DNA of 63,020 bases, the filler included, from Collodictyon triciliatum (Eukaryota), in NCBI GenBank assembly GCA_043381765.1. It is 17 parts of 17 records of this genome, joined end to end, with 100 filler letters (N's around TTAATTAATTAA, not from the genome) between each part and the next. Parts side by side here need not be neighbours in the genome. Positions count along the whole stretch, not along the records: positions 60,430 to 63,020 come from JBHJMP010007046.1; 16 more parts are not named here. One strand, given 5' to 3'. Under the pieces are notes generated by a model. That model saw nothing but the letters and a program-made list of their open reading frames with translations. It made no database searches and had not been told where the DNA came from. Positions 4,284 through 62,926 of the stretch are shown piece by piece. The number at the start of each line of letters is the position of its first letter. Within the stretch, counting starts at the first letter, position 1. The position numbers were made by a program, and so were the translations under genes.

Positions 4284-4469
4284 CTAGCGCCGCTCAAGTA
4301 TATATAACCGGAAATTTATTTAATGCCTAAAATCGTTATATTTTATAAAACTTATACTAAAAGGCTTATACAATCTTTCGATTGATAAGCCTGGTACTCT
4401 AGTATCCAAAGTCTCACCACTTTTTCACAAAGATTGTGTAGTGGCGAAGGCTGCCAGGAAAGACCCGAC

Positions 4470-4472
<3 letters not shown>
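4284..4472 (-). ncRNA. Candidate Fanzor omegaRNA scaffold / element right end (copy A)
   Basis: Lies immediately 3' of Fanzor copy A, and 4354-4472 is homologous to 62468-62588. Three predicted stems: 4450-4472, 4414-4447, and a long GAAA-tetraloop hairpin at 4354-4405. The distal boundary at 4284 is inferred. Confidence 0.6.
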
Positions 4473-6512
<2,040 letters not shown>

Positions 6513-7371
6513 CTGAAAGTCTTTGTTTTACGTTTCCCTTTAGAGAACTACCGAGTTTTCAGTTTTAATCAGCCTTTAGTCAATCAGTCGATTTAATATA
6601 TATAAAATTGCACAGAATCAATTCAGGTAAAATTAAGCACCTACCGAGACTCTCAAAATGTGTGCATTGTGGCAAACACACACACACAAAGTTTTTTTTT
6701 ACAAGTGATTTGAGACAAAACGCTAAGAGCCGACTCGGCAAGTTCGAAAGGACGGCCGTATAGCCGTTGCGACTGAAAGTTAACGCATCGACCCCAAACA
6801 ACATGATTGCCGATGCAAGTGCGGATAGTATACTTTTTTGAAATGCATGTTTGGTGGCAGGTTTATGGGCTGATTTCTGTCTGGGCCAAGGCAAGGGCTT
6901 GTTTGTCAGTTTTGAATTTTTGAATGAATATTACATAACGGAAAATAAAATATAAGCTGATTATAGGAATTGAATGAACTTATTATGTATTTTTAACTAT
7001 ATTATATATACCAATCATACTAACATATTATTCAGATTCTTTCTTGGATTCATCAGAGCTCCTGCTTTCGTCAATCCAGATTTAATTCGATGGTTTTCTG
7101 TGCAAAAAACTGCTTTTGATGAGTACACTTTCGTTGTATATAAAGTGGTGTGCCTTGAAAGGGATAAAACCAAGTTGGTCACAACCTTTGCAATGAAGTT
7201 TATCCATTAACAGGCTGAATGAGACCGAAGAGAAAGAAAAGAAAAAGGAAGAAGATGAATGAATCAGAGCAACTAATACTGAGCACCATATGCATACTGA
7301 TCTTGCTGCCAGAAGCCTTTTTTTATTCCACTTTACTACCACTACTACTACCACTACTACTACCACTACTA

Positions 7372-24349: not shown

Positions 24350-26081
24350 TCCATCAATGAGGTAGGTATATGAATTTGAATACTCGATTATGTGTGATAT
24401 CTAGAGACTCGATCCAACCCATACGAAAAATGCAGTCGGGTATTTCACCAAACTATGTAAATGTATCAATACATCAGAGAAAGTGGTATGCTGCAAGTCT
24501 AAAGTATTTGAGGAGATGTATGTAGATCACTGTTACGTGATTATGGGAAAGACAAAGGTCTTTCAAGGCAGTTAGCTCATCGAATTCCTGGGGAAGCGTT
24601 TCAATCTGCACTTTTTTTTCCCGTACGACGTTGCATATGATTAATGTGAGTGGCATATGATCAATTCTCGAAGTGACATTTTGGTGGATAAAGCCCTGAC
24701 AACCTTGTTGAAAGAAATGTCAATCGAGCACAAGCCTGCCCAAGAATCGATAAGCCCTTTATGGATATTACTCAGACCTTGGTTAATGCAAACAGCTTCG
24801 AACAGAGCCAAGGAGTGCATGATTTCTGACGTCGATTTGCATATGTAACGAACCTGTGTAGGGTTCCTATAGAAAGGCAACGAAGATATTCCCACGTGTG
24901 ATCTTTTTGTATGAACGAAGTCTCGGTATTCGATGTTAAAGTTTTTTAGATTCTTCATGAAGGTAATGGCTTCAGGCAAGACTTCTACCTACAAAAAGCG
25001 CCTCAGTCAAAATTTTTTTTAATTAATCATTCGAAAAGATATTTTGATATTGTATCAGTTTCTTGTTTTAAAAAATCGTCTACGTGGCGCATACTTCGTT
25101 CTCTTGAAGGTAGAATGTTGTTAATTGCGATAGAATCGAAAGGCCATCAGGTAATGATGTGATTGCGTTTGTTGACAAATCCATGTGCTTCAAGTTTGAA
25201 AGGTATGAGATACTATTCGGAAGTGATGTGATTGAGTTTTTATTCAAGTCAATCAGCGTCAAATTTGTCAAGGAGAGAACAGGAATAGGAATCTCCATGA
25301 ACATGTTGTGCCTCAGACTGAGCGCCTTCAACTGAGTCAAAAGTGAAAAGTTCATGGGTGTGGAAGATAGTTTATTTTGACCCAACTGAAGTATCACAAG
25401 ATTTGACAGGGTATATATCTGTTCTGGGAGTGCACTGATATTTATTTTGTCCAAGTACAAACCTGTAAGGTTCTGCAAGGCCAATATCTGCAAAGGAAAG
25501 GAGGCAAGGTCTCTGTATCCCAGGCTCAAGTTTTGAAGATTCGAGAATATCGATATCTTATGAGTAATATTTGTAAATTTATTTTGGTTGGCATAGAGCG
25601 TTTTCAAGTTTATCATTAGCATTAGCTCCTCAGGAAATGACTCAAGACGATTGCAATCGAGTTGGATAGACTCTAACTTTGTCAAGAGTGCAAAGCTGGC
25701 ACCCAAAACAGATAACCTATTGTAGGAAAAACCCAGTGAGAGCAGCCCAGTAAGCAACGAAATACCATTAGGAAGGTGGTTGTAGTGGTTTTGGTTCAGG
25801 TGAACTTCAGTCAGACGAGACAAAAGTGAAAGATCTGCCGGCAACTCAGCAATTCTGTTTTGATTGAGCCAAAGTACCTCCAAGTTTGAAACTAAAAATA
25901 CACCGCCAGGAATATTGACCAGGCTTCTTGCGGAGATGTTAAGGTATGTGCAGTTTTCCAGTTGGCCGTCGCCTCCTTTTGTTCGATCTGCGATATCTCC
26001 GATGATTTTTCCAAGAGCTTTTAGTTGGCTTTTGTGGTTATCGATTCCTCTGGTGCTTTCTTTCGTATAAAAGTTTCCCAT
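24350..26081 (-). CDS. Leucine-rich-repeat protein with putative N-myristoylation signal (3' extent uncertain)
   Basis: 333-aa first exon with about 12 LxxLxLxxNxL repeats, starting MGNFYT (MGxxxT). Further LRR exons at about 24990-24350. Confidence 0.85.
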
Positions 26082-34025: not shown

Positions 34026-37000
34026 TTCGGAGCCGTAGCTTCCATTTGGACATGTAATGCATGATGATTGATTGAATGAGCCGGTTTTGTTGTTGAATGT
34101 GCCAGCTGAACATGATGTGCATGATGCTTGGCCATCTTTATCGCTCCATGTTCCTTGTGGACATTCAATGCATGATTTATTGCCATATAAGCCGGATTTT
34201 GAGTTGAATGTGCCTTTTGGACAAGCATAGCATGATTCCGAGTCTTTTGTGATTCCTTCTTTTTGATAGAATCCTGGTGAGCATGAAAAGCATGATGAGC
34301 TTCCGACTGAGCTGTAACCTCCATCTGGACATGAAATGCATGATGATTGATTGGATGAACCAGTTCTATTGTTGAATGTACCGGCTGGACATGATGTGCA
34401 TGATACTTGACCCTCTCTATCATTCCAAGTACCTTGTGGACATTCGATACATGATGCATTTCCATATGAGCCGGAGTTTGAGTTGAATGTGCCTTTTGGA
34501 CAAGGAGAACATGATTTTGAGTCTTTACTGATGTCTTCTTTTTGATATAATCCTGATGAGCATAGACTGCATGAAGAGCTTCTTTCTGAGCTGTAGCTTC
34601 CATTTGGACATGAAATGCATGATGATACATTGAATGAACCAGTTCTATTGCTGAATGTACCAGCTGGACATGATGTGCATGATGCTTGACCATCTTTATC
34701 ATTCCAAGTACCTTGCGGACATTCAATACATGATAGGTTTCCATATGAACCGGATATTGAGTTGAATGTGCCTTTTGGACAAGCATGGCATGATTTGGAG
34801 TCTTTTGTGATATCTTCTTTTTGATAGAATCCTGATAAGCATGAGTTACATGATGAGCTTCTCTCTGAGCTATAGCTTCCGTTTGGACATGAAATGCATG
34901 ATGATTGATTGAATGAGCCAGTTTTGTTGTTGAATGTTCCAGCTGGACATGATGTGCATGATGCTTGACCATCTCTATCATTCCAAGTACCTTGTGGACA
35001 TTCAATACATGATATGTCTCCATATAAGCCGAAATTTGAGTTGAATGTGCCTTTTGGACAAGCATAGCATGATTTGGAGTCTTTTGTGATATCTTCTTTT
35101 TGATAGAATCCTGATAAACATAGACTACATGATGAGCTTCTTTCTGAACTATAGCTTCCATTTGGACATGAAATACATGATGATTGATTATATGAGCCAG
35201 TTTTGTTGTTGAATGTGCCAGCTGGACATGATGTGCATGATGCTTGACCATCTCTATCATTCCAAGTACCTTGTGGACATTCAATACATGATTTGTTGCC
35301 ATATGAGCCTGAGTTTGAGTTGAATGTGCCTTTTGGACAAGCATAGCATGAATTTGAGTCCTTTTTGATATCTTCTTTTTCATAGTATCCTGATGAACAT
35401 AAACTACAAAATGCGCTTCCGACCGAGCTGTAGCTTCCATCTGGACATGAAATGCATGATGATTGATTGAATGAGCCGGTTTTATTGTTGAATGTACCAG
35501 CTGAACATGATGTGCATGATGCTTGGCCATCTTTATCGCTCCATGTTCCTTGTGGACATTCAATGCATGATATATTTCCATATGAGCCGGAGTTTGAGTT
35601 GAATGAGCCTTTTGGACAAGCGTAGCATGATTTTGAGTCTTTTGTGATTTCTTCTTTTTGATAGAATCCTGGTGAGCATGAAAAGCATGATGAGCTTCTT
35701 TCTGAGCTGTAGCTTCCGTTTGGACATGAAATGCACGATGATTCATTGAATGAGCCGGTTTTATTGTTGAATGTACCAGGTGGACACGATGTGCATGATG
35801 CTTGACCATCTCTACCATTCCAAGTACCTTGTGGACATTTAATACATGATTTGTTTCCATATGAACCGGATATTGAGTTGAATGAGCCTTTTGGACAAGC
35901 GTAGCATGATTCAGAGTCTTTTATGATTCCTTCTTTTTGATAGAACCCTGATGAGCACAAACTACATGATGAACTTCTCTCTGAGCTGTAGCTTCCCTTT
36001 GGACATGAAATACATGATGATTGGTTAAATGAACCAGTTTTGTTGTTGAATGTGCCAGCTGGACAGGATGTACATGATGCTTGACCATCCTTATCATTCC
36101 AAGTGCCTTGTGGACATTCGGTGCATGATGTGTTTCCATATGAACCAGATATTGAGTTGAATGTGCCTTTTGGACAAGCATAGCATGATTCTGAGTCTTT
36201 TATGATTCCTTCTTTTTGATAGAATCCTGATGAACATAAGCTGCATGATGAACTTCTCTCTGAGCTGTAGCTTCCCTTTGGACATGAAATGCATGATGAT
36301 TGATTGAATAAACCAGTTTGATTGTTGAATGTACCAGCTGGACATGATGTGCATGTTGCCTGACCATCTCTATCATTCCAAGTACCTTGTGGACATTCGA
36401 TACATGATGTGTTTCCATATGAGCCGGAGTTTGAGTTGAATGTGCCTTTTGGACATGCATAGCATGATTGTGAGTCTTTTGAGATGCCTTCTTTTTGGTA
36501 GAATCCTGATAAACATAGACTACATGATGAGCTTCTTTCTGAACTATAGCTTCCATTTGAACATGAAATACATGATGATTGATTGAATGAGCCGGTTTTA
36601 TTGTTGAATGTACCAGCTGGACAGGATGTACATGATGCTTGACCATCTCTATCATTCCAAGCACCTTGTGGACAATCAGCACATGACGTGTTTCCATATG
36701 AGCCGGAGTATGAATTGAATGTGCCTTTTGGACAAGCATAGCATGACTGTGAGTCTTTTGTGATGTCTTCTTTTTGATAAAATCCTGATGAGCATAGACT
36801 GCATGATGAGCTTCCGACTGAGCTGTAGCTTCCGTTTGGACATGAAATGCATGATGATTGATTGAATGAGCCAGTTTTGTTATTATATGTTCCAGCTGGA
36901 CAGGATGTGCATGATGCTTGACCATCTCTACCATTCCAAGTACCTTGTGGGCATTCAATACATGATATATTGCCATATAAGCCAGAGTTTGAGTTAAATG

Positions 37001-37700
37001 TGCCTTTTGGACAAGCGTAGCATGATTCAGAGTCTTTTGTGATTTCTTCTTTTTGATAGAATCCTGGTGAACATGAGATACATGATGAACTTCTTTCTGA
37101 GCTGTAGCTTCCATCTGGACATGAAATGCATGATGACTGGTCAAATGAACCAGCCTTACCGTTGAATGTACCAGGTGGACACGATATGCATGATGCTTGA
37201 CCATCTCTGTCATTCCAAGTACCTTGTCGGCATTCAATACATGATTTGTTTCCATATGAGCCGGAGTTTGAATTGAATGTGCCTTTTGGACAAGCATAAC
37301 ATGATTTTGGGTCTTTTGTGATTCCTTCTTTTTGATAGAATCCGGATGAACATGAGATACACGATGCGCTTCTTTCTGAGCTGTAGCTTCCGTCTGGACA
37401 TGGAATGCATAGTAATTGATTCAATGAGCCAGTTTTGTTGTTGAATGTGCCAGCTGGACAGGATGTGCATGACGCTTGACCATCTCTACCATTCCAAGTA
37501 CCTTGTGGGCATTCAGTACATGATTTGTTTCCATATGAGCCCGAGTATGAGTTGAATGTGCCTTTTGGACAAGCATAGCATGATTCAGAGTCTTTTATGA
37601 TATCTTCTTTTTGATAGAATCCTGATAAGCATAAGCTGCATGAAGAGCTTCTATCTGAGCTGTAGCTTCCATCTGGACATGAAATGCATGATGATTCATT
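34026..37700 (-). CDS. Cys-rich surface protein fragment (GCC2/GCC3, ephrin-receptor-like CxxCPxG repeats), open across the whole contig
   Basis: About 13 tandem 279-nt (93-aa) units, each with five CxxC(P/S)xG(T/S/F)(F/W/Y) modules and several NxS/T sequons. Confidence 0.9.
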
Positions 37701-49117: not shown

Positions 49118-52100
49118 AGTGTTTCGATTGTCTCATTTGATTTGTGTGCTTCCTCCTCCTTCGATTTCCTTGTGGATTCTATCTCGTCTCTCAGCTTACT
49201 GATTGCTGATTCATGCTCCTCAATAAGAAGCTGTCTTTCACGAAGAGATGAAGCTGTCGTATCTTGTTGCGACAAGATATTAGTTTTCAGCTGGTCCATA
49301 TTGGTATTCAGCTGAGCCACCTCATTCAAGAGAGACTCGTTCTCTTTTTGAAGTGATTCGATTCGCTCTTTCATTTGCAAAATGCTTACATTTTTTTCAG
49401 ATATTTGAGCGAATTGAGATTCATTCTCCTTCTGTAGTAATTCGATTTTCTCTTTCAGTTGTAAAATATTTACATCTTTATCAGAAATTTGAGCGTATTG
49501 AGATTCATTTGCTTTCTGTAGTGTTTCGATTTTCTCTTTCAGTTGTAAAATGCTTACATCTTTTTCGGATATTTGATTGGATTGGGACTCATTCTCTTTC
49601 TGTAGTGACCCAATATGCTCTTTCAGTTGCAAATTACTTGTATCTTTTTCAGATATTTGAGTGGATTGGGATTCATTCTCCTTCTGTAGTGATTCAATTC
49701 GCTCTTCCAGTTGTAAAATATTTACATCTTTTTCAGAAATTTGATTGGATTGGGACTCGATCTCTTTCTGTAGTGACCCAATATGCTCTTTCAATTGCAA
49801 AATACTTACATCTTTTTCAGATATTTGAGTGGATTGAGATTCGTTCTCCTTCTGAAGTGATTCGATTTGCTCTTTCAGTTGCGTTACAACTTGCTTTGCC
49901 TTCGATTTGAGTGCTTCGATTGTCTCATTTGATTTGTGTGCTTCCTCCTCCTTCGATTTCCTTGTGGATTCTATCTCGTCTCTCAGCTTACTGATTGCTG
50001 ATTCATGCTCCTCAATAAGAAGCTGTCTTTCACGAAGAGATGAAGCTGTCGTATCTTGTTGCGACGAGATATTAGTTTTCAGTTGGTCCATATTGGTATT
50101 CAGCTGAGCCACCTCATTCAAGAGAGACTCGTTCTCTTTTTGAAGTGATTCGATTCGCTCTTTCAATTGCAAAATGCTTACATCTTTTTCGGATATTTGA
50201 TTGGATTGAGATTCATTCTCTTTCTGAAGTGATTCGATATTCTCTTTCAGTTGTAAAATGCTTACATCTTTTTCAGATATTTGAGTGGATTGAGATTCGT
50301 TCTCCTTCTGAAGTGATTCGATTTGCTCTTTCAGTTGCTTTACAACTTGTTTTGCCTTCGATTTGAGTGTTTCGATCGCCTCATTTGATTTGTGTGCCTC
50401 ATCTTCCTTCGATTTCCTTGTGGATTCTATCTCATCTCTCAGCTTGCTGATTGCTGATTCATGCTCCTCAATAAGAAGCTGTCTCTCACGAAGAGATGAA
50501 GCTGTCGTATCTTGTTGTGACGAGATATTAGTTTTCAGTTGGTCCATATTGGTATTCAGCTGGGCCACCTCATTCAGGAGAGACTCGTTCTCTTTTTGTA
50601 GTGACCCAATATGCTCTTTCAGTTGCAAAATGCTTACATCTTTTTCAGATATTTGAGTGGATTGAGACTCGATCTCTTTCTGTAGTGATTCAATTTTCTC
50701 TTTCAGTTGCAAAATACTTGCGTCTTTTTCAGATATTTGAGTGGATTGAGATTCATTTTCCTTCTGTAGTGATTCAATTTTCTCTTTCAATTGCAAAATG
50801 CTTACATCTTTTTCAGATATTTGAGTGGATTGAGACTCGATCTCTTTCTGTAGTGATTCGATTTGCTCTTTCAGTTGCAAAATGCTTACATCTTTTTCAG
50901 ATATTTGAGTGGATTGAGACTCGATCTCTTTCTGTAGTGATTCGATTTGCTCTTTCAGTTGCAAAATACTTGCGTCTTTTTCAGATATTTGAGTGGATTG
51001 AGATTCATTTTCCTTCTGTAGTGATTCGATTTGCTCTTTCAGTTGCAAAATGCTAACATCTTTTTCAGAAATTTGAGCGTATTGAGATTCATTTTCTTTC
51101 TGTAGTGACCCAATATGCTCTTTCAGTTGCAAAATACTTGCGTCTTTTTCAGATATTTGAGTGGATTGAGACTTGTTCTCTTTCTGTAGTGATTCGATTT
51201 TCCCTTTCATTTGCAAAATGCTTACATTTTTTTCAGATATTTGATTGGATTGGGATTCATTTTCCTTCTGTAGTGATTCGATTTGCTCTTTTAGTTGCAA
51301 ATTACTTGTATCTTTTTCAGATATTTGAGTGGATTGAGACTCGTTCTCCTTCTGAAGTGATTCGATTTGTTCTTTCAATTGCAAAATACTTGCGTCTTTT
51401 TCAAATATTTGAGTGGATTGGGACTCGTTCTCCTTCTGAAGTGATTCGATTTGCTCTTTCAGTTGCATTACAACTTGTTTTGCCTTCGATTTGAGTGTTT
51501 CGATCGCCTCATTTGATTTGTGTGCCTCATCTTCCTTCGATTTCCTTGTGGATTCTACCTCATCTCTCAGCTTGCTGATTGCTGATTCATGCTCCTCAAT
51601 AAGAAGCTGTCTCTCACGAAGAGATGAAGCTGTTATATCTTCTTGCGACGAGATATTAGTTTTCAGTTGGTCCATACTGGTATTCAGCTGAGCCACCTCA
51701 TTCAAGAGAGACTCGTTCTCTTTTTGAAGTGATTCGATTTGCTCTTCCAGTTGCGAAATGCTTACATATTTTTCGGATATTTGATTGGATTGTGATTCGT
51801 TGTCTTTTTGAAGTGATTCGATTTGCTCTTTCATTTGCAAAATACTTGCATCTTTTTCAGATATTTGATTGGATTGGGACTCATTCTCTTTCTGTAGTGA
51901 CCCAATATGCTCTTTCAATTGTAAAATACTTGCGTCTTTTTCAGATATTTGAGTGGATTGAGACTCGTTCCCTCTTTTGAGTAATTCGATTTGCTCTTTC
52001 AGTTGCGTTACAACTTGTTTTGCCTTCGATTTGAGTGCTTCGATTGTCTCATTTGATTTGTGTGCTTCCTCCTCCTTCGATTTCCTTGTGGATTCTATCT

Positions 52101-52788
52101 CGTCTCTCAGCTTGCTGATTGCTGATTCATGCTCCTCAATAAGAAGCTGTCTCTCACGAAGAGATGAGGCTGTCGTATCTTGTTGTGACGAGATATTAGT
52201 TTTCAGTTGGTCCATACTGGTATTCAGCTGGGCCACCTCATTCAAGAGAGACTCGTTGTCTTTTTGAAGTGATTCAATTTGCTCTTTTAGTTGTGAGATG
52301 CTTGCATCTTTTTCATATATTTGAGTAGAGCGAGACTCGTTCTCTAACTGAAGTGATTCAATTTGTTCTTTCAATTGAACAACAACTTGTTTAGCTTTCG
52401 ATTTAAGGACTTCAATTGTTTCATTCAGTTTATTAATTTCATTTTCCTTCAAAACACGAGCGGATTCTATTTCACTCCGTAAATTTCTTATAGTAGTCTC
52501 ACAACTGTCTAGATCCTTTTCTAGCCCATGCAATTTTTGATCTCTTTCCGAAAGTATTGATGAATTATCTATGTATTCTGAGTGAATAATGAGGCGTGAT
52601 TCATTCATGTTGTCTGATGATATATCCTGACTCGGACGAGCAGGTTTTAAATGTCCCTTAAGTGATCTATTTTGGTTCACAATTGATTCAGTTTGGATGT
52701 CTCTGCCGTCATGACTTACCTCCCCTGTGGTAGATTCGGCATATAATTCGGTGCTATCGTTCACCCTATTCGATTTGGACTCTACCCC
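49118..52788 (-). CDS. Giant coiled-coil repeat protein fragment
   Basis: ORF of more than 1200 aa. Tandem 28-aa units (QLKEQIESLQKENESQSTQISEKDASIL) are interspersed with five copies of an ~80-aa module (LLNEVAQLNT...KAKQVV; the last is cut by the contig end). Confidence 0.88.
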
Positions 52789-56659: not shown

Positions 56660-59600
56660 CAGGTCTTTCTGTCATGATTTTCACTTTCCACAGTACAAAA
56701 GCAGGCAGACCAACCAAGAAAAGAAAGAAAACCGGAACAGATATTGCAAGCAGTTTTTGATATTCATCCGTGGCTGGGCTGCATTGAACCCAGGGCTTGA
56801 AATTCAGATACCATTTATTCACACCTTCGTCATAAACGGTGCATCCAAAAACACCAAACACCTCTTTTGCAACCGAGTAGTATATAAAAAACAGAAGATT
56901 CAATGCGATGAAAACAGCCTGCAATAAAATATTTTTTTTAGAATTACTAAAGATGAAACTGTATCTAATAGAAAAATTGATAATTGAACATTAATTTTTT
57001 CATCCTTACTTTGTTCTGTTTGTGTCCATATCCGAAATAGTACGTAGCTGAGCCAACGATGATAAAGATTGGTATTCTTGCAAAACTGAACATCAGAGAA
57101 GCAAATACATCGTCTACTCCAAGGACACAGGAAAGGCTGGGAAATTGAATTGAACCAATCGACGATGAGACTTCGATAAAGCTGTTTGCATCTTCTGAAA
57201 GAACAAGTCCACTAGACACAATCGACAGTGTTTGCATGTGGAACATTATTATCCTGAGTTTCGCTACAAAAATATTCTGATTAATATAATAAGAATCAAG
57301 TGAAATAACTTAGTAACATTTACCTGATTTTGATGTCTCTGTGAAATACAGATAGCAAATGAACATAAAGAATCCAATCGAAGCAAGAATCAGAGTTGAA
57401 TAAATTGTTCCTTTATCGCATTTCACACACGACCTTCCTTGATTTCCGTATCCATTCTGACATTTTGAGCAGGCATAACCTTCATAGCCCTCTTGACAAA
57501 GGTCTATGATTTCGACCGTCGTATTTGAATTCGAAATTTTCTCTGGAATCGACACATCACATGGCTCGCGACGTGGACACGGCAGTATTGATTTCACAGA
57601 GGTGACGCTTGGTGAAGCATGACAGAATTTCAAGGACGTTCCATCAAGGCAATCACATCCTCTTGGGCATTGAACGCAGTTATTTCCAAATCCAAAATAT
57701 CCAGGCAAGCATTTACAAAATTCAAAGTCATAGTATTCTGGATTCAAGTCAACCTCCAACTCAATCAGACCAGATTTCGAAATAATAGAAGGACAAAGGT
57801 AGCGTTTCGTTTCATCTTGGAGATTGAAAGATGTTGTAAAATTCATGAAATCAGGAAGAAAATTGGCTGTTCCGTGATTCATCGATGTTCTATTCAATCC
57901 CAAATACTCGAGCTTTGAAAACCCGATGTATGATTCGGGAATGCTTCCAACAATCGGATTTCCAGTGAGGTCAAGGTAAGTCCATCTCAATAGATTTGTG
58001 AGTTCATCAAGCTTAGTGATGTTGTTTTTCTTAATACTAAACGTTTTTATGTTAACAACATAGTTATAAAGTCTCCAATTCAATGCTCCATAGAGTTGGT
58101 TGTCATCAAGCAAAAGGTTTTCATAAAAGTAATCGTAATTTCCTGAAGCTGGAACAATAAAAATGCCAATGTCTCCTGAAAATGAGTTGTTTCTCAAGTC
58201 AATGGTGACTAGATTCGGCAGATTCCAGAATAAATCAGGCATACTTCCGGACAATTTATTGTGAGATAAAACGAGTGATTTCAGCTCTGACAGTCCCTGA
58301 AAATAGGTTGGGACTGTGCCGTTCATTTTGTTCCAAGACAAGTCGATGTATTTAATTGATGGTAATTTCCAGTAATTGGGAATAGAGCCAGTGATTTGGT
58401 TTTCGCTCACATCTAGTCTCGTCAGGTTATTCAGATTGAACATCGGTAATGTGCCTGACAACTTATTTCGGAACAACACTATTTCCTTGATGTTTATGCA
58501 ATCTTTGAAATCTGGAACTTCTCCCTCTAGTTGATTATCATAGACAGAAAATATCTCCAGTTTACGCATATTTGAAAGGTCTGGTATTGTGCCTAAAATT
58601 AATCATTAAATTTACAGGAAATATGAAAATCAAAAGAAATAGAAATGGAAAATAAATAGAAATCACCATTCAATCTGTTTCTGTCAAGATAAATTCTTCT
58701 AACACTTGGATTTCCATTAAAGTTTGGAACCGTTCCTATAATGTTGAGTTAGTTTTTATTAATAATGCATGAAATAATAGTTAAAAATTACCAGTCAATT
58801 GGTTGTCGACAAGAGAAATCCTTTCAATATTTGGAATTCCACTGAAGTTTGGAACGGTTCCTGTAATATAAAGTGAGCTTTTTCATCAATATTACATGAA
58901 ATAATGATTAAACTTACCAGTCAATTTATTGCTGGAAAGATAAATTCTTAAAACATTTGGAATTCCACTAAAGTTTGGAACTGTCCCTGTAATATATAGT
59001 TAGTTTTTTTTTTTTATTAATAACATATGAAATAATAATTAAACATACCAATCAACTGGTTGCTGGAAAGATAAATTATTTCAACATTTGGAATTCCACT
59101 GAAGTTTGGAATGGTCCCTGTAATATATAGTTAGTTTTCATCAATAATGCATGAAATAACAATTAAAACTTACCATCCAACTGGTTGTTGTAAAGAATAA
59201 TTCCCAAAACATTTGGAATTCCACTGAAGTTTGGAACTGTCCCTGTAATGTAAAGTTGGCTTTTTTTATATTACGTGAAAATAATAATTAAAACTTACCA
59301 TCCAATTGATTGCTGGAAAGATTAATTATTAAAACTATCGGAATTCCACTGAAGTTTGGAACCGTTCCTGTGTTATAAAGTTAGTTTTTCATCAATAATA
59401 CATAAAATAATAATTAAAACTTACCATCCAACTGATTGCTGTGAAGATAAATTCTTAAAACATTTGGAATTCTACTGAAGTTTGGAACGGTTCCTGTAGT
59501 ATAAAATTAGTTTTTTTAATAATACATGAAAATAATAATAATTAAACTTACCAGTCAATTGATTGTTGAAAAGATAAATTCTTAAAACATTTGGAATTCT

Positions 59601-60328
59601 ACTGAAGTTTGGAACGGTTCCTGTAGTATAAAATTAGTTTTTAAATAATAATTCATGAAATAATAATTAAAACTTACCAATCAATTGGTTGCTGTAAAGA
59701 AAAATTTCTAAAATATTTGTAAGTCCGATAAAGTTTGGAACTGTTCCTGTAATGTGAAAATCATTAGAATTCAGAATAAACCTTATAGAAAATTACTTGA
59801 TACCTGTAATTTTTTCACTTCCACCAATGTATAATTTCTTCAATGACTGTATTCCTGAAAAATCCGGTATTGTTCCTTCCAATTCATTCCTATCAATCTC
59901 AAGATGTTCAATATTCGGCATATTTTGAAAGTCTGGAATCGTTCCGGTAATTAGATTCACAAAGAGATTAAGATACGTAATACTTGGGAGATTAAAGTCT
60001 GGAAGAATTCCGTAAATGGAATTGTAGCTCATGTCCAAATAATCCAATAATTGAAACTTTTCAAAAATCGCAGAGGCAGCTTCAATGTCACCGTTAAGAT
60101 TGTTTCCAGACATACTGATTCTGAATATGGGACATGTGTTGTTCTATAAATATAAAGGAAAATATGTTAAGAATAAAATCAAAAGAGATTATTATAATTG
60201 TTTCAAGAAATTACCTTATGGTCTTCATCCGAACAGCTCTGATGACACGATATTCCATACCAATCACATATCGGAATACTTTCATTCTTCCATCCAGTGT
60301 TCCGAAACCAATTATCGCCGCCAAGTGA
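56660..60328 (-). CDS. Plant-type LRR + Cys-rich + multi-pass TM receptor-like protein (partial both ends)
   Basis: LxxLDLSxNxLxGxIP repeats, then CKCLPGYFG...CQEGYEGYACSKCQNGYG, then several TM segments with FGCT...YLNFKPWVQC. Confidence 0.88.
58667..59746 (-). repeat. Nine tandem exon+intron cassettes, one 23-aa LRR per 69-nt exon
   Basis: Period about 125-130 nt. Exon consensus GTVPNFSGIPNVLRIYLSSNQL(D/T/I). Homologous ~55-60-nt phase-1 introns GTAAGTTT...CTAAC...CAG. Confidence 0.9.
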
Positions 60329-61250
60329 ANNNNNNNNNNNNNNNNNNNNNNNNNNNNNNNNNNNNNNNNNNNNTTAATTAATTAANNNNNNNNNNNNNNN
60401 NNNNNNNNNNNNNNNNNNNNNNNNNNNNNATTTTTTTTTTAAAAATTAATTTAATGAAGATTTTTTTTTTTTTTTAGATGGACTGAAGTTTTATTAAAAT
60501 TGAAAACTCTGTGGTTTCCTAAAGGGGAAAAAAAAATAAAGACTTTCAGATGAGGAAAAGAAAACGTCTTGAGTCTGAGAGTCTAAAGTATGTAAAACCA
60601 GACTATCGAAATGTGGAAACATCTCTAAAGTCGATTGTAAAGAATCTGGATGACTATGAAGAAATCAACGACATGCTTTTATTGTGTCATAATTTGGTTA
60701 CCGACAATTATCTGTTTGCAAGATGTTACGTATTGAAATCACAACTCCCAACAACAGATGAAAACTTTTTTTTTGGACGCTTTAAAGACAGTCGGAATAG
60801 TTTCACAAGACAGACCCGCAAGATTAAAACATCCAGAAATGATTAAAGACATGATGACTTTTTATCTCAATGATTTCCGATTCCTTTTGTCCCAAGGAGA
60901 ATGCTTTCCGTTGGTTGGACTGTCTCGTGTACTACCGTACTTGGCGAAGAAAATGTTAACAGCTTATCATAACAACATTAAGGAGCGTTTTGCAAAGAGG
61001 TTACTGCGCTTTATAAATCTAACAGTTCCTGGAGATGAGAATATAACGGAAGCTATTCAAAAGGCAGACCTACGAAAGTTAAAAAAAACCATCTTCAAGA
61101 AACTCGAAATACTGGAACAATGTAAAGAATGGGCTAGAATGTATTTGAATCGTATCATTCCCAGCGATATTGTAAAAGGTATCGAATATGACGTCAAAGT
61201 CAATTCAAGTAAGTAGATTCCATGTCTGATTTACATGAATCGCATTTTTG

Positions 61251-61296
61251 TATGGCATAACCTCGCTGCACTTTGAATCGAATAAAGGAAAAAAAA
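61251..61296 (+). mobile_element. Short retroposed insert, family 2, replacing ~61 nt of Fanzor B
   Basis: TATGGCATAACCTCGCTGCACTTTGAATCGAATAAAGGAAAAAAAA sits where copy A has 5750-5810 (EDIGTKLFQPIPLRTNNIPCR). There is no TSD; the target site is deleted. Confidence 0.8.
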
Positions 61297-61577
61297 TATT
61301 ACTCTAGATACTATATGTTTGATAGATATATTAGTATTGTCTGGAAAAAAATCATTAATGAAGAATTATTAGGATGGAAAGAGACACTATGGGATACGTT
61401 CTTTGAAATGAATAAGAGGGTCTTTCATCAAAGAGGCTACAATTTTAAATACATGATACAAACAGACGGCTTGGCGGTGTCATTATTATTTGAAAAGAAA
61501 GGTATTTCAAACTCAAAATTCAAAAATAATCAAAAAAAAAAACCCCCCAAGAATATGTTTATATAGACGAACTTTCC

Positions 61578-61603
61578 CTTTGAATCGAATAAAGGAAAAA
61601 AAA
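61578..61603 (+). mobile_element. Short retroposed insert, family 2, inside Fanzor B
   Basis: CTTTGAATCGAATAAAGGAAAAAAAA between perfect 17-nt TSDs ATATAGACGAACTTTCC (61561-61577 and 61604-61620). Copy A has the empty site (~5331-5347). Confidence 0.92.
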
Positions 61604-62467
61604 ATATAGACGAACTTTCCGAAGAGCAAGTATCTTCATTATTGACAAAAAATAGTTTGAGTGGACGCAGGCAAGTTTAATTTGGTTTACATGGTGGATG
61701 AGACAGGTAAGAAATCACGTTACACGACACACCAAGGAAGAAATGATAGCAAATCTCTTGAAAATCACAAAATACTCTTGCGCGAGAGAAAAGTACATTT
61801 CTTCATGGATATACATGGCAACAGATTTACAAAGTGCTGTTTCTTTTGGTGCCAGGACTTGTGAAGAAGATCAGCAGTTTGAGACATCAAGAGTATCTTT
61901 AATCGATTTAGAGACAGAACCGAGTAAACATAATTCATGCACCGTCGATTATGAATAATTTCGAAAATATGTATCTATGAAATCAAGATACCAGATAGAA
62001 CTATCCGGATTTTATGAACAAGTAACTTTTCGAAAGATGAACTGGAGGCATTATGTTAATACAAAAAGAAGTGAACAGTTGTTTATGGACCGATTCGAAA
62101 AGACATTGGGCAAGGATGTTGTAATGACGTATTGAGACTGGAGCAGAAAATCTCTGATGAAACATTTTATGCCAACAATCGGAATAGGATTACGAAGAAT
62201 ACTATCTAAACGTTTTGAACCAGTTAGTGTAAATGGATTAAAAACCTCCAAGATGTGCTGTAGCTGCGAAAAAGAACTGGGATATATGAAACTGAAAGGA
62301 AACTCAAAAAAAGTGTATATAGATGTCTCATATGTAAATAATGCAATCGCTCAGAAAGCAAACAAACTGTATTCTCGACAAGAGACTTTAACAGCGCTCA
62401 AAATATACTCGACAAAGTTCCTTTAATACTTCAAAAATATAGATACAATTTCCTCCAAAAAAAATAG

Positions 62468-62588
62468 GCTGTTGGGTCTTTCCTGGCAGCCTTCATCACT
62501 ACACGACCATAGTGAAAAAAAGTGGTGAGACCTTGGATACTAGCGCACCAGGTTTACCAATCGAAAGAATGGTATACTCATCCTAGTA
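62468..62588 (+). ncRNA. Candidate Fanzor omegaRNA scaffold (copy B)
   Basis: Homologous to 4354-4472. Stems at 62468-62490, 62493-62528, and a GAAA-capped hairpin closed by TACTAG/CTAGTA (62538-62588). Confidence 0.6.
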
Positions 62589-62926
62589 GGCAACAATATG
62601 GAAGTATGTCTTCGGTCTCGTTTTTTATATTTTCCACCAGCACCGCCACATACGCAAAATTCTCGCTGGATTGCTTGAAAAACACCAATTTCACACAATT
62701 TACGTTTACCAGCCATTCTGCTCCATTTAGCACCGACCCAGCCCAATCCGACTTTGCCTTGACGAAGATATGTTTCCATAAGCAAGGGCAAACCCACCCA
62801 AGGAAGATGCACCCAACCGAACAGAAACATAGGGGAAATTGTCTCGAATCAAACTCGAAATAAATCAATCAATAAATAATATCAAATAAATAAATAAATA
62901 AACAAACAAACAAACAATCAATCAAA

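Follow-up and report, generated by a model that had tools for sequence, protein, structure and literature searches.

The window examined here, the whole 63,020-nt stretch of DNA that was analysed, is of AT-rich eukaryotic composition (36.7% G+C, with N gaps) and contains two decayed copies of a Fanzor1-like element, A and B, each of which closes with a tail of ~120 nt. The question raised by this locus is what that tail is. The earlier note had proposed an omegaRNA scaffold, and had pointed to differences between the two copies that preserve base pairing. As the best explanation of the tail the proposal stands, on the strength of the Fanzor1 gene, the sense strand, the position and a fold that is an outlier, while the argument from pairing in two copies failed a chance control. 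We hold it reasonably likely that the tail is a relic omegaRNA scaffold together with the right end of a Fanzor1-only DNA element of ~2.1 kb. Feature coordinates are collected in Table 1.

Extent and coding content of the two elements

The second copy was located with the 25-mer of stem 1, which recurs at 4449-4473 on the minus strand with 2 mismatches (0 expected by chance). Pairwise alignment of the whole elements gave 80-93% identity in most 100-column blocks, and the homology stopped at ...TAGTA, at 62588 in copy B and 4355 in copy A; beyond this point identity drops to 6/15 (40%). The claim that both copies share a ~120-nt 3' segment was borne out by this second tail and by the homology running to these two positions. 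An N gap lies ~50 bp upstream of the left end of copy B. At its right end, copy B is matched without a difference by contigs of two coded freshwater-metagenome runs (62542-62793), which continue across 62588 into unique flank, so the junction is real and not an assembly artefact, and the host organism occurs in lakes. Many copies of the element are present in public runs, with 173 contigs in one coded run; none of the runs listed is on record as RNA, and among the variant positions listed for the contigs none falls within 62466-62592.

Further copies of the tail were sought by pattern. The 18-base stem-1 word was found at 36 loci in a metagenome scan, none of which (0/36) had the rest of the tail. 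A gapped pattern of the tail gave no match in the viral collection and 83 loci in the genome collection, all of them bacterial or archaeal and none related (0/83), the best agreeing at just 15/37 adjacent bases.

On their sequence, both nuclease genes are pseudogenes. The longest stop-free piece is 171 aa in copy A and 159 aa in copy B, against ~630 aa in intact relatives, and one conserved coding block is missing from copy B. The 171-aa piece of copy A (4655-5167, minus strand) matched the PpFz1 chain 9cf0 from Parasitella (E 8.7e-5) and the SpuFz1 chain 8gkh from Spizellomyces (E 2.7e-4), and had 978 homologues at E<=1e-3 among 1.84 billion representatives. One of these homologues, the 682-aa protein P0001, matched three solved Fanzor1 structures at E 1e-31 to 8.5e-19. 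The motifs G-V-D-A-G, zinc-ribbon and R-D-F-N-S-A are legible in the translations. RuvC motifs, a zinc ribbon and homology to the PpFz1 and SpuFz1 chains thus give the tail the Fanzor1 partner gene expected of an omegaRNA, and the description of the locus as two Fanzor copies was right, with the qualification that both are dead. Pfam searches with six gene fragments returned no relevant family, and a cluster look-up of five close protein matches returned no names. The best match of the 171-aa fragment, P0002, a predicted protein of 7727 aa, is matched along 59 stretches and probably represents a gene prediction that spans an array of decayed element copies.

Neither copy has the features of a Tc1/mariner element: both are without long terminal repeats, and a length of 2.1-2.2 kb leaves no room for a transposase. 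A gap-free repeat finder reported no long terminal inverted repeat in A or B. Read by eye, a possible short imperfect inverted repeat joins the ends of copy A (left ACTAAAGGCT, 6580-6571; right AGCCTTTTAGT), and its right arm would be the 3' strand of the last hairpin of the tail; the repeat finder did not report this short repeat either.

Several smaller observations were made along the elements. The sequence GAT(T/G)G, common to both copies (6581-6585; 60477-60481), precedes the left arm of the possible short inverted repeat (ACTAAAGGCT in A); a conserved CA stands upstream of the left repeat of SpuFz1 (PMC10432273), and by analogy GAT(T/G)G could belong to a target-adjacent motif, as seen in two copies only. 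A run of ~100 A (5470-5575) interrupts the Fanzor pseudogene of copy A and is missing from copy B. A word of ~30 nt (...GAATCGAATAAAGGAAAAAAA...) occurs twice in copy B, at 61271-61300 and 61578-61607, both times where B departs from A; these may be small insertions or repair footprints. Each copy has two 20-nt stretches, one close to the start of the gene and the other immediately before the tail, that are 80-85% complementary to each other (60626-60645 with 62371-62390; 4549-4568 with 6417-6436). This complementarity may be due to chance, many pairs of similar quality being listed.

The tail and its relatives in giant viruses

The tail is ~120-122 nt long and consists of three stem-loops on the sense strand at the 3' tip of the element. 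It begins at the in-frame TAG of copy B, a stop codon that shares the frame of the C-terminal R-D-F-N-S-A motif and takes in the first base of stem 1; its other end is the homology boundary. Its position is that expected of an omegaRNA: in sense orientation, at the 3' end of a Fanzor gene and reaching the right end of the element. All three stems described earlier were predicted by RNAfold on the sense strand of both copies. The minimum free energy of the sense tail was -50.8 kcal/mol in copy A (z -7.27) and -40.2 kcal/mol in copy B (z -2.72), and in each case 0/200 shuffles folded as well. When 120-nt windows were slid along copy A (67 windows), the tail ranked top with z -5.5 and -3.5, followed by a next value of -1.85 and a median of -0.08; along copy B (68 windows) it again ranked top (z -4.4), with a low-complexity stretch at 61407-61526 close behind at -4.3. 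Under the folding model, the three hairpins are real and lie at the 3' tip of both elements. Rfam had no family for the tail; within 61900-62800 a search up to E 10 gave a single match, to L10-leader on the other strand (E 2.4; 17.9 bits, with a gathering score of 44).

Contig depth in run X5 drops after ~62510 and ends at ~62592, as recorded from contigs and not from reads of RNA ends. A loose end in the same run at 62506, seen in a single contig, could pair as a 6-bp alternative SL2.

Table 1. Positions of the two elements, the stem-loops (SL) of their tails and the related viral module; window coordinates except for the viral loci
Feature	Position	Strand	Details
Element, copy A	4355..6585	minus	2231 bp, decayed; poly(A) tract of ~100 nt inside; from A/B alignments
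Fanzor1-only element, copy B	60477..62588	plus	2112 bp; from A/B alignments
Decayed Fanzor1 gene, copy B	60550..62467	plus	ATG 60550; stop TAG 62465-62467; from three-frame translation
SL1, copy A	4450..4472	minus	9 bp, two of them G.U
SL2, copy A	4413..4448	minus	9-bp outer stem, 5-bp inner hairpin
SL3, copy A	4355..4405	minus	13 bp, one bulge, GAAA loop, closed by outer helix
SL1, copy B	62466..62492	plus	11 bp (9 bp common with A), 5-nt loop; from RNAfold
SL2, copy B	62493..62528	plus	8-bp outer stem, 3-bp inner hairpin (5 bp in A), A-rich 3' internal loop
SL3, copy B	62538..62588	plus	Terminal long hairpin, GAAA loop; weakened, register-shifted; ends at right end of element
Putative guide-templating flank	62589..62609	plus	Provided that the RNA continues for 15-21 nt beyond the right end; by analogy with the 14-15 nt of SpuFz1 and with 21-nt guides
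Viral 3' RNA module	L037 4567-4721; L038 4549-4702; L041 4537-4677; L042 4588-4745		Covarying

A protein-based scan of viral contigs returned eight giant-virus loci with a Fanzor1 33-48% identical to the window fragment. Four of them (L037, L038, L041 and L042) are complete mariner-type elements, all four (4/4) with 24-nt terminal repeats of 0-1 mismatch, and L037 carries a DDE_3 transposase together with a 634-aa Fanzor1. These relatives, with the gene-less locus L056, are of the PGv-1 type of Tc1/mariner Fanzor1 as given in the excerpted text of Bao & Jurka 2013 (PMC3627910), and over the fragment tested the nucleases of L037-L042 are 43-48% identical to that of the window. The repeats and transposase of Tc1/mariner elements are thus found in the viral relatives, whereas the window elements are without both. 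Another protein-based scan of the viral contigs contributed just L051, and a scan with a 26-base pattern just L056. Locus L056 (2600-2744), on a giant-virus contig, has the viral RNA module and the right end; the 260 nt upstream of the module are unlike the 3' coding end of viral Fanzor1 genes, and the locus was absent from both protein-based scans. From its sequence, L056 resembles a 'ghost' copy without a protein.

At the 3' end of the viral nuclease gene, a 12-bp SL1 leads directly into a nested SL2 whose 3' internal loop is A-rich, and the last hairpin reaches the end of the element, its 3' strand being the right terminal repeat. In the window tail the parts come in the same order (SL1, 1-2 nt of linker, then a nested SL2 with an A-rich 3' loop), and its last hairpin likewise reaches the element end; unlike in the window, SL1 and SL2 of the viral elements fall inside the ORF. 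An alignment of five distinct viral sequences (L037, L038, L041, L042 and L056) had 91.2% of its cells paired and two-sided changes in 7/21 pairs. Only 2-7 of 500 shuffles reached the observed values, and slid controls were 35-49% paired. The viral stop codon stands at three sites, in the loop of SL2 (L041), after SL2 (L042) or after SL3 (L037 and L038), which points to conservation at the RNA level and means that bases which are translated in one element lie outside the coding sequence in another.

A covariance model, R1, was built from the viral sequences alone. In the 63-kb window, it placed the tails of A and B first and second of 10 matches, in the expected register, at 12.9 and 12.4 bits (E 0.19 and 0.25 over the whole window; best background match 10.6 bits), a weak similarity at the RNA level of 12-13 bits. 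Searches of 401 nt centred on the two gene ends gave E 0.0012 and 0.0016; default filters miss both tails. An 89-kb control was made up of two distant Fanzor loci and six metagenome contigs unrelated to the element; its top score, 17.1 bits, fell within a bacterial ORF and exceeded that of either tail, so homology of the tail to the viral RNA module is unproven, and the resemblance in sequence and layout is no more than suggestive. An alignment of the window and viral rows was fitted to R1, and its "compensatory" columns therefore prove nothing. A 15-base motif of the viral module occurred at 119 loci at least in the viral scan, and among the 78 of these searched R1 found no new member.

Readings of the tail

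The tail is the non-coding right end of a Fanzor1-only element; it follows a Fanzor1-like gene on the sense strand and has an exceptional structure specific to that strand. The antisense of the copy A tail folded to -36.2 kcal/mol, so that the sense strand is better by ~14.6 kcal/mol, and the antisense of copy B to -34.7 kcal/mol (z -1.05, 30/200 shuffles as good), a difference of ~5.5 kcal/mol in favour of sense. Both copies thus have the stable, sense-specific fold expected of an omegaRNA. A cruciform would fold alike on both strands, and the sense-strand advantage, together with at least five G.U pairs in the fold of copy A, speaks for RNA over a DNA palindrome. It weighs against the reading of the hairpins as a DNA-level signal of the transposon end with no guide-RNA role, be it a terminal or subterminal inverted repeat, a transposase binding site or a Helitron2-like 3' hairpin. 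That reading, which we regard as unlikely, draws on the tail being the physical right end of the element, on the short inverted repeat seen by eye in copy A, on the viral terminal repeats and their overlap with the last hairpin, and on the fact that Fanzor1 rides in Mariner, Helitron2 and other elements with end repeats or hairpins, as described in the excerpts of PMC3627910. SL1 and SL2, however, sit 60-120 nt inside the element end, the long terminal inverted repeats sought with the repeat finder were found in neither copy, and in the known systems, as excerpted, the two roles coexist and do not exclude each other.

The changes between the two copies bear on a second reading, in which the tail is shared neutral sequence such as an ordinary 3' UTR, with a predicted fold that has no function. 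The earlier count of 13 substitutions and a 2-nt indel in the first 104 alignment columns was reproduced; beyond it, there is a 1-nt indel at column 105 and 5 further substitutions in the last 17 columns. The changes quoted as preserving pairs also exist (C-G>U-G in stem 1; G-U>A-U and C-G>U-G in stem 2; G-U>G-C in the outer part of stem 3), but as support for the fold they equal chance, since the pair-breaking changes had been omitted. With the previously proposed structure of 41 pairs in the register of copy A, 31 pairs are unchanged, 4 are changed yet paired and 6 are broken in B, one of them the inner pair of stem 2 (A-U>G.A) and the other five in the body of stem 3. A null model that scattered these 11 transitions and 7 transversions at random 50,000 times gave an expectation of 7.6 broken pairs (P of <=6 = 0.27) and 4.0 preserved pairs (P of >=4 = 0.61). 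The RNAfold structure of A gave the same picture, with 8 pairs broken against 8.1 expected (P 0.59), and among the 26 pairs compared between the two copies, two copies being all there are here, two-sided compensatory changes numbered zero. The covariation expected of an omegaRNA is thus not seen in this pair of copies, in which 4 preserved and 6 broken pairs equal random expectation. Stem 3 of copy B persists only through a one-base shift of register with two mismatches. The remark that overall identity resembles that of the coding part agreed with our figures: 100/119 aligned bases (84%) in the tail and 1595/1852 (86%) in the dead coding part. In practical terms, an RNA fold cannot be supported by single-sided transitions when two decayed copies are compared; here such changes equal chance.

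Neutral sequence would account for this identity and for pair changes that match random expectation, and background sequence can outscore the tail with the viral model; the fold itself is what tells against it. The tail of copy A, which none of 200 shuffles equalled, is a clear outlier along its element, and the viral relatives have the same layout, which covaries there. In a decay simulation, random mutants of A averaged -31.4 +/- 5.0 kcal/mol, and copy B was stabler than 91.5% of them (8.5% as stable; P ~0.085, not significant). Conversely, none of 1000 random mutants of B reached the energy of copy A, which implies a highly structured ancestor and not a chance fold. The simulation hints at an originally selected fold: copy A looks close to a highly structured ancestor, with its fold almost perfect, and copy B like a partly decayed version that has lost part of stem 3. 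We judge the neutral reading quite unlikely.

It is very improbable that the tail is what remains of a C-terminal coding extension of the nuclease, its structure being incidental: SL1 and SL2 do lie inside the ORF of the viral relatives and one frame of copy A is open through the whole tail (99-aa ORF, 4352-4651), but the in-frame stop of copy B precedes SL1 and the frame left open in A carries stops in B, the two tails are separated by 2-nt and 1-nt indels, the viral stop codon stands at three places along a conserved RNA, and a protein search with the ORF that reads through the A tail had one match, P0154, a decayed copy that ends before the tail.

The relic omegaRNA scaffold is the reading that we retain. 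Guide RNAs at the 3' end of Fanzor elements are already established, and a relic scaffold in dead copies is an expected feature of such elements. All steps of the presumed mechanism are taken over from published Fanzor1 and TnpB systems. In an active copy, a sense transcript of the nuclease gene would run through the tail and ~15-21 nt into the flank. The protein would bind SL1 through its RuvC/TNB surface, with the WED and RuvC domains holding the junction of scaffold and guide, and the flank-derived 3' extension would guide DNA cleavage at a site consisting of the target-adjacent motif and the flank, i.e. the element-free site. With both genes dead, any action of the RNA at this locus would have to be in trans, through an intact nuclease encoded elsewhere; that the tail RNA works with the dead copies in cis is very unlikely.

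The guide RNA of the bacterial TnpB system (IS200/IS605, e.g. ISDra2) is likewise encoded where the 3' end of the nuclease gene meets the right transposon end, with a flank-derived guide and a scaffold that for the most part overlaps the ORF. The present tail shares this location. Fanzor guide RNAs reach farther past the ORF and overlap the right inverted repeat, and guides of 21 nt have been used with Fanzor, according to the parts of the text drawn on (PMC10530073). The guide of SpuFz1 is 14-15 nt (PMC10432273). In the excerpted description of Fz1 omegaRNAs, SL1 is followed by 1-3 more stem-loops for a total of 75-150 nt, and SL1 is 7 bp in the three solved complexes, GtFz1, SpuFz1 and PpFz1 (PMC11423790). 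In comparison with those three complexes only, SL1 is longer here (9 bp in A, 11 bp in B) and in the viral relatives (12 bp). Fanzor1-only elements with borrowed ends are known, as reported in the excerpts of PMC3627910. With ~122 nt, three stem-loops and an SL1 of 9-11 bp, the tail fits the published Fanzor1 picture, as far as the excerpts present it, as one more family.

The SpuFz1 omegaRNA of Spizellomyces punctatus (Saito et al. 2023, PMC10432273; Xu et al. 2024, PMC11423790, the latter in excerpt) is alike in having SL1 first and further stem-loops after it. It differs in having two stem-loops in a 75-nt scaffold, against three in ~122 nt here, in its 7-bp SL1, and in the 30-nt inverted repeats of SpuFz1 loci (PMC10432273), none being found here; the genes here are dead and the tail is known from sequence alone. 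The GtFz1 omegaRNA of Guillardia theta is a longer multi-hairpin scaffold of 150 nt with SL1-SL4 (Xu et al. 2024, PMC11423790), and in size and number of hairpins, compared by that paper's excerpted description only, it brackets the present tail.

A wider proposal, which we put forward as tentative and rather doubtful, is that the core of SL1 and nested SL2 is homologous to the module that covaries in mariner-type Fanzor1 elements from freshwater giant viruses, that nuclease and scaffold moved as a unit between giant viruses and a freshwater eukaryote, that the stop codon slid across the RNA so that the same bases are coding or non-coding by lineage, and that the scaffold of copy A could be a 'ghost' guide for an intact nuclease elsewhere. 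If confirmed, the tail would add one more Fanzor1 family with a three-hairpin guide scaffold and may link the Fanzor1 RNA modules borne by hosts and by giant viruses.

Other features of the window

Pfam searches with the other ORFs of the window returned LRR, Myb and BUD22 matches only. Leucine-rich-repeat genes lie at 59000-60330, 57310-58569 and 25080-26081 (minus strand); at ~59000-59780 there is apparently one leucine-rich repeat per exon, with introns of ~55-60 nt. Two long minus-strand ORFs contain tandem repeats: 13 copies of a 279-nt unit at 34026-37677 (ORF of 1148 aa), and ~21 copies of an 84-nt unit at 49248-52465 (ORF of 1232 aa).
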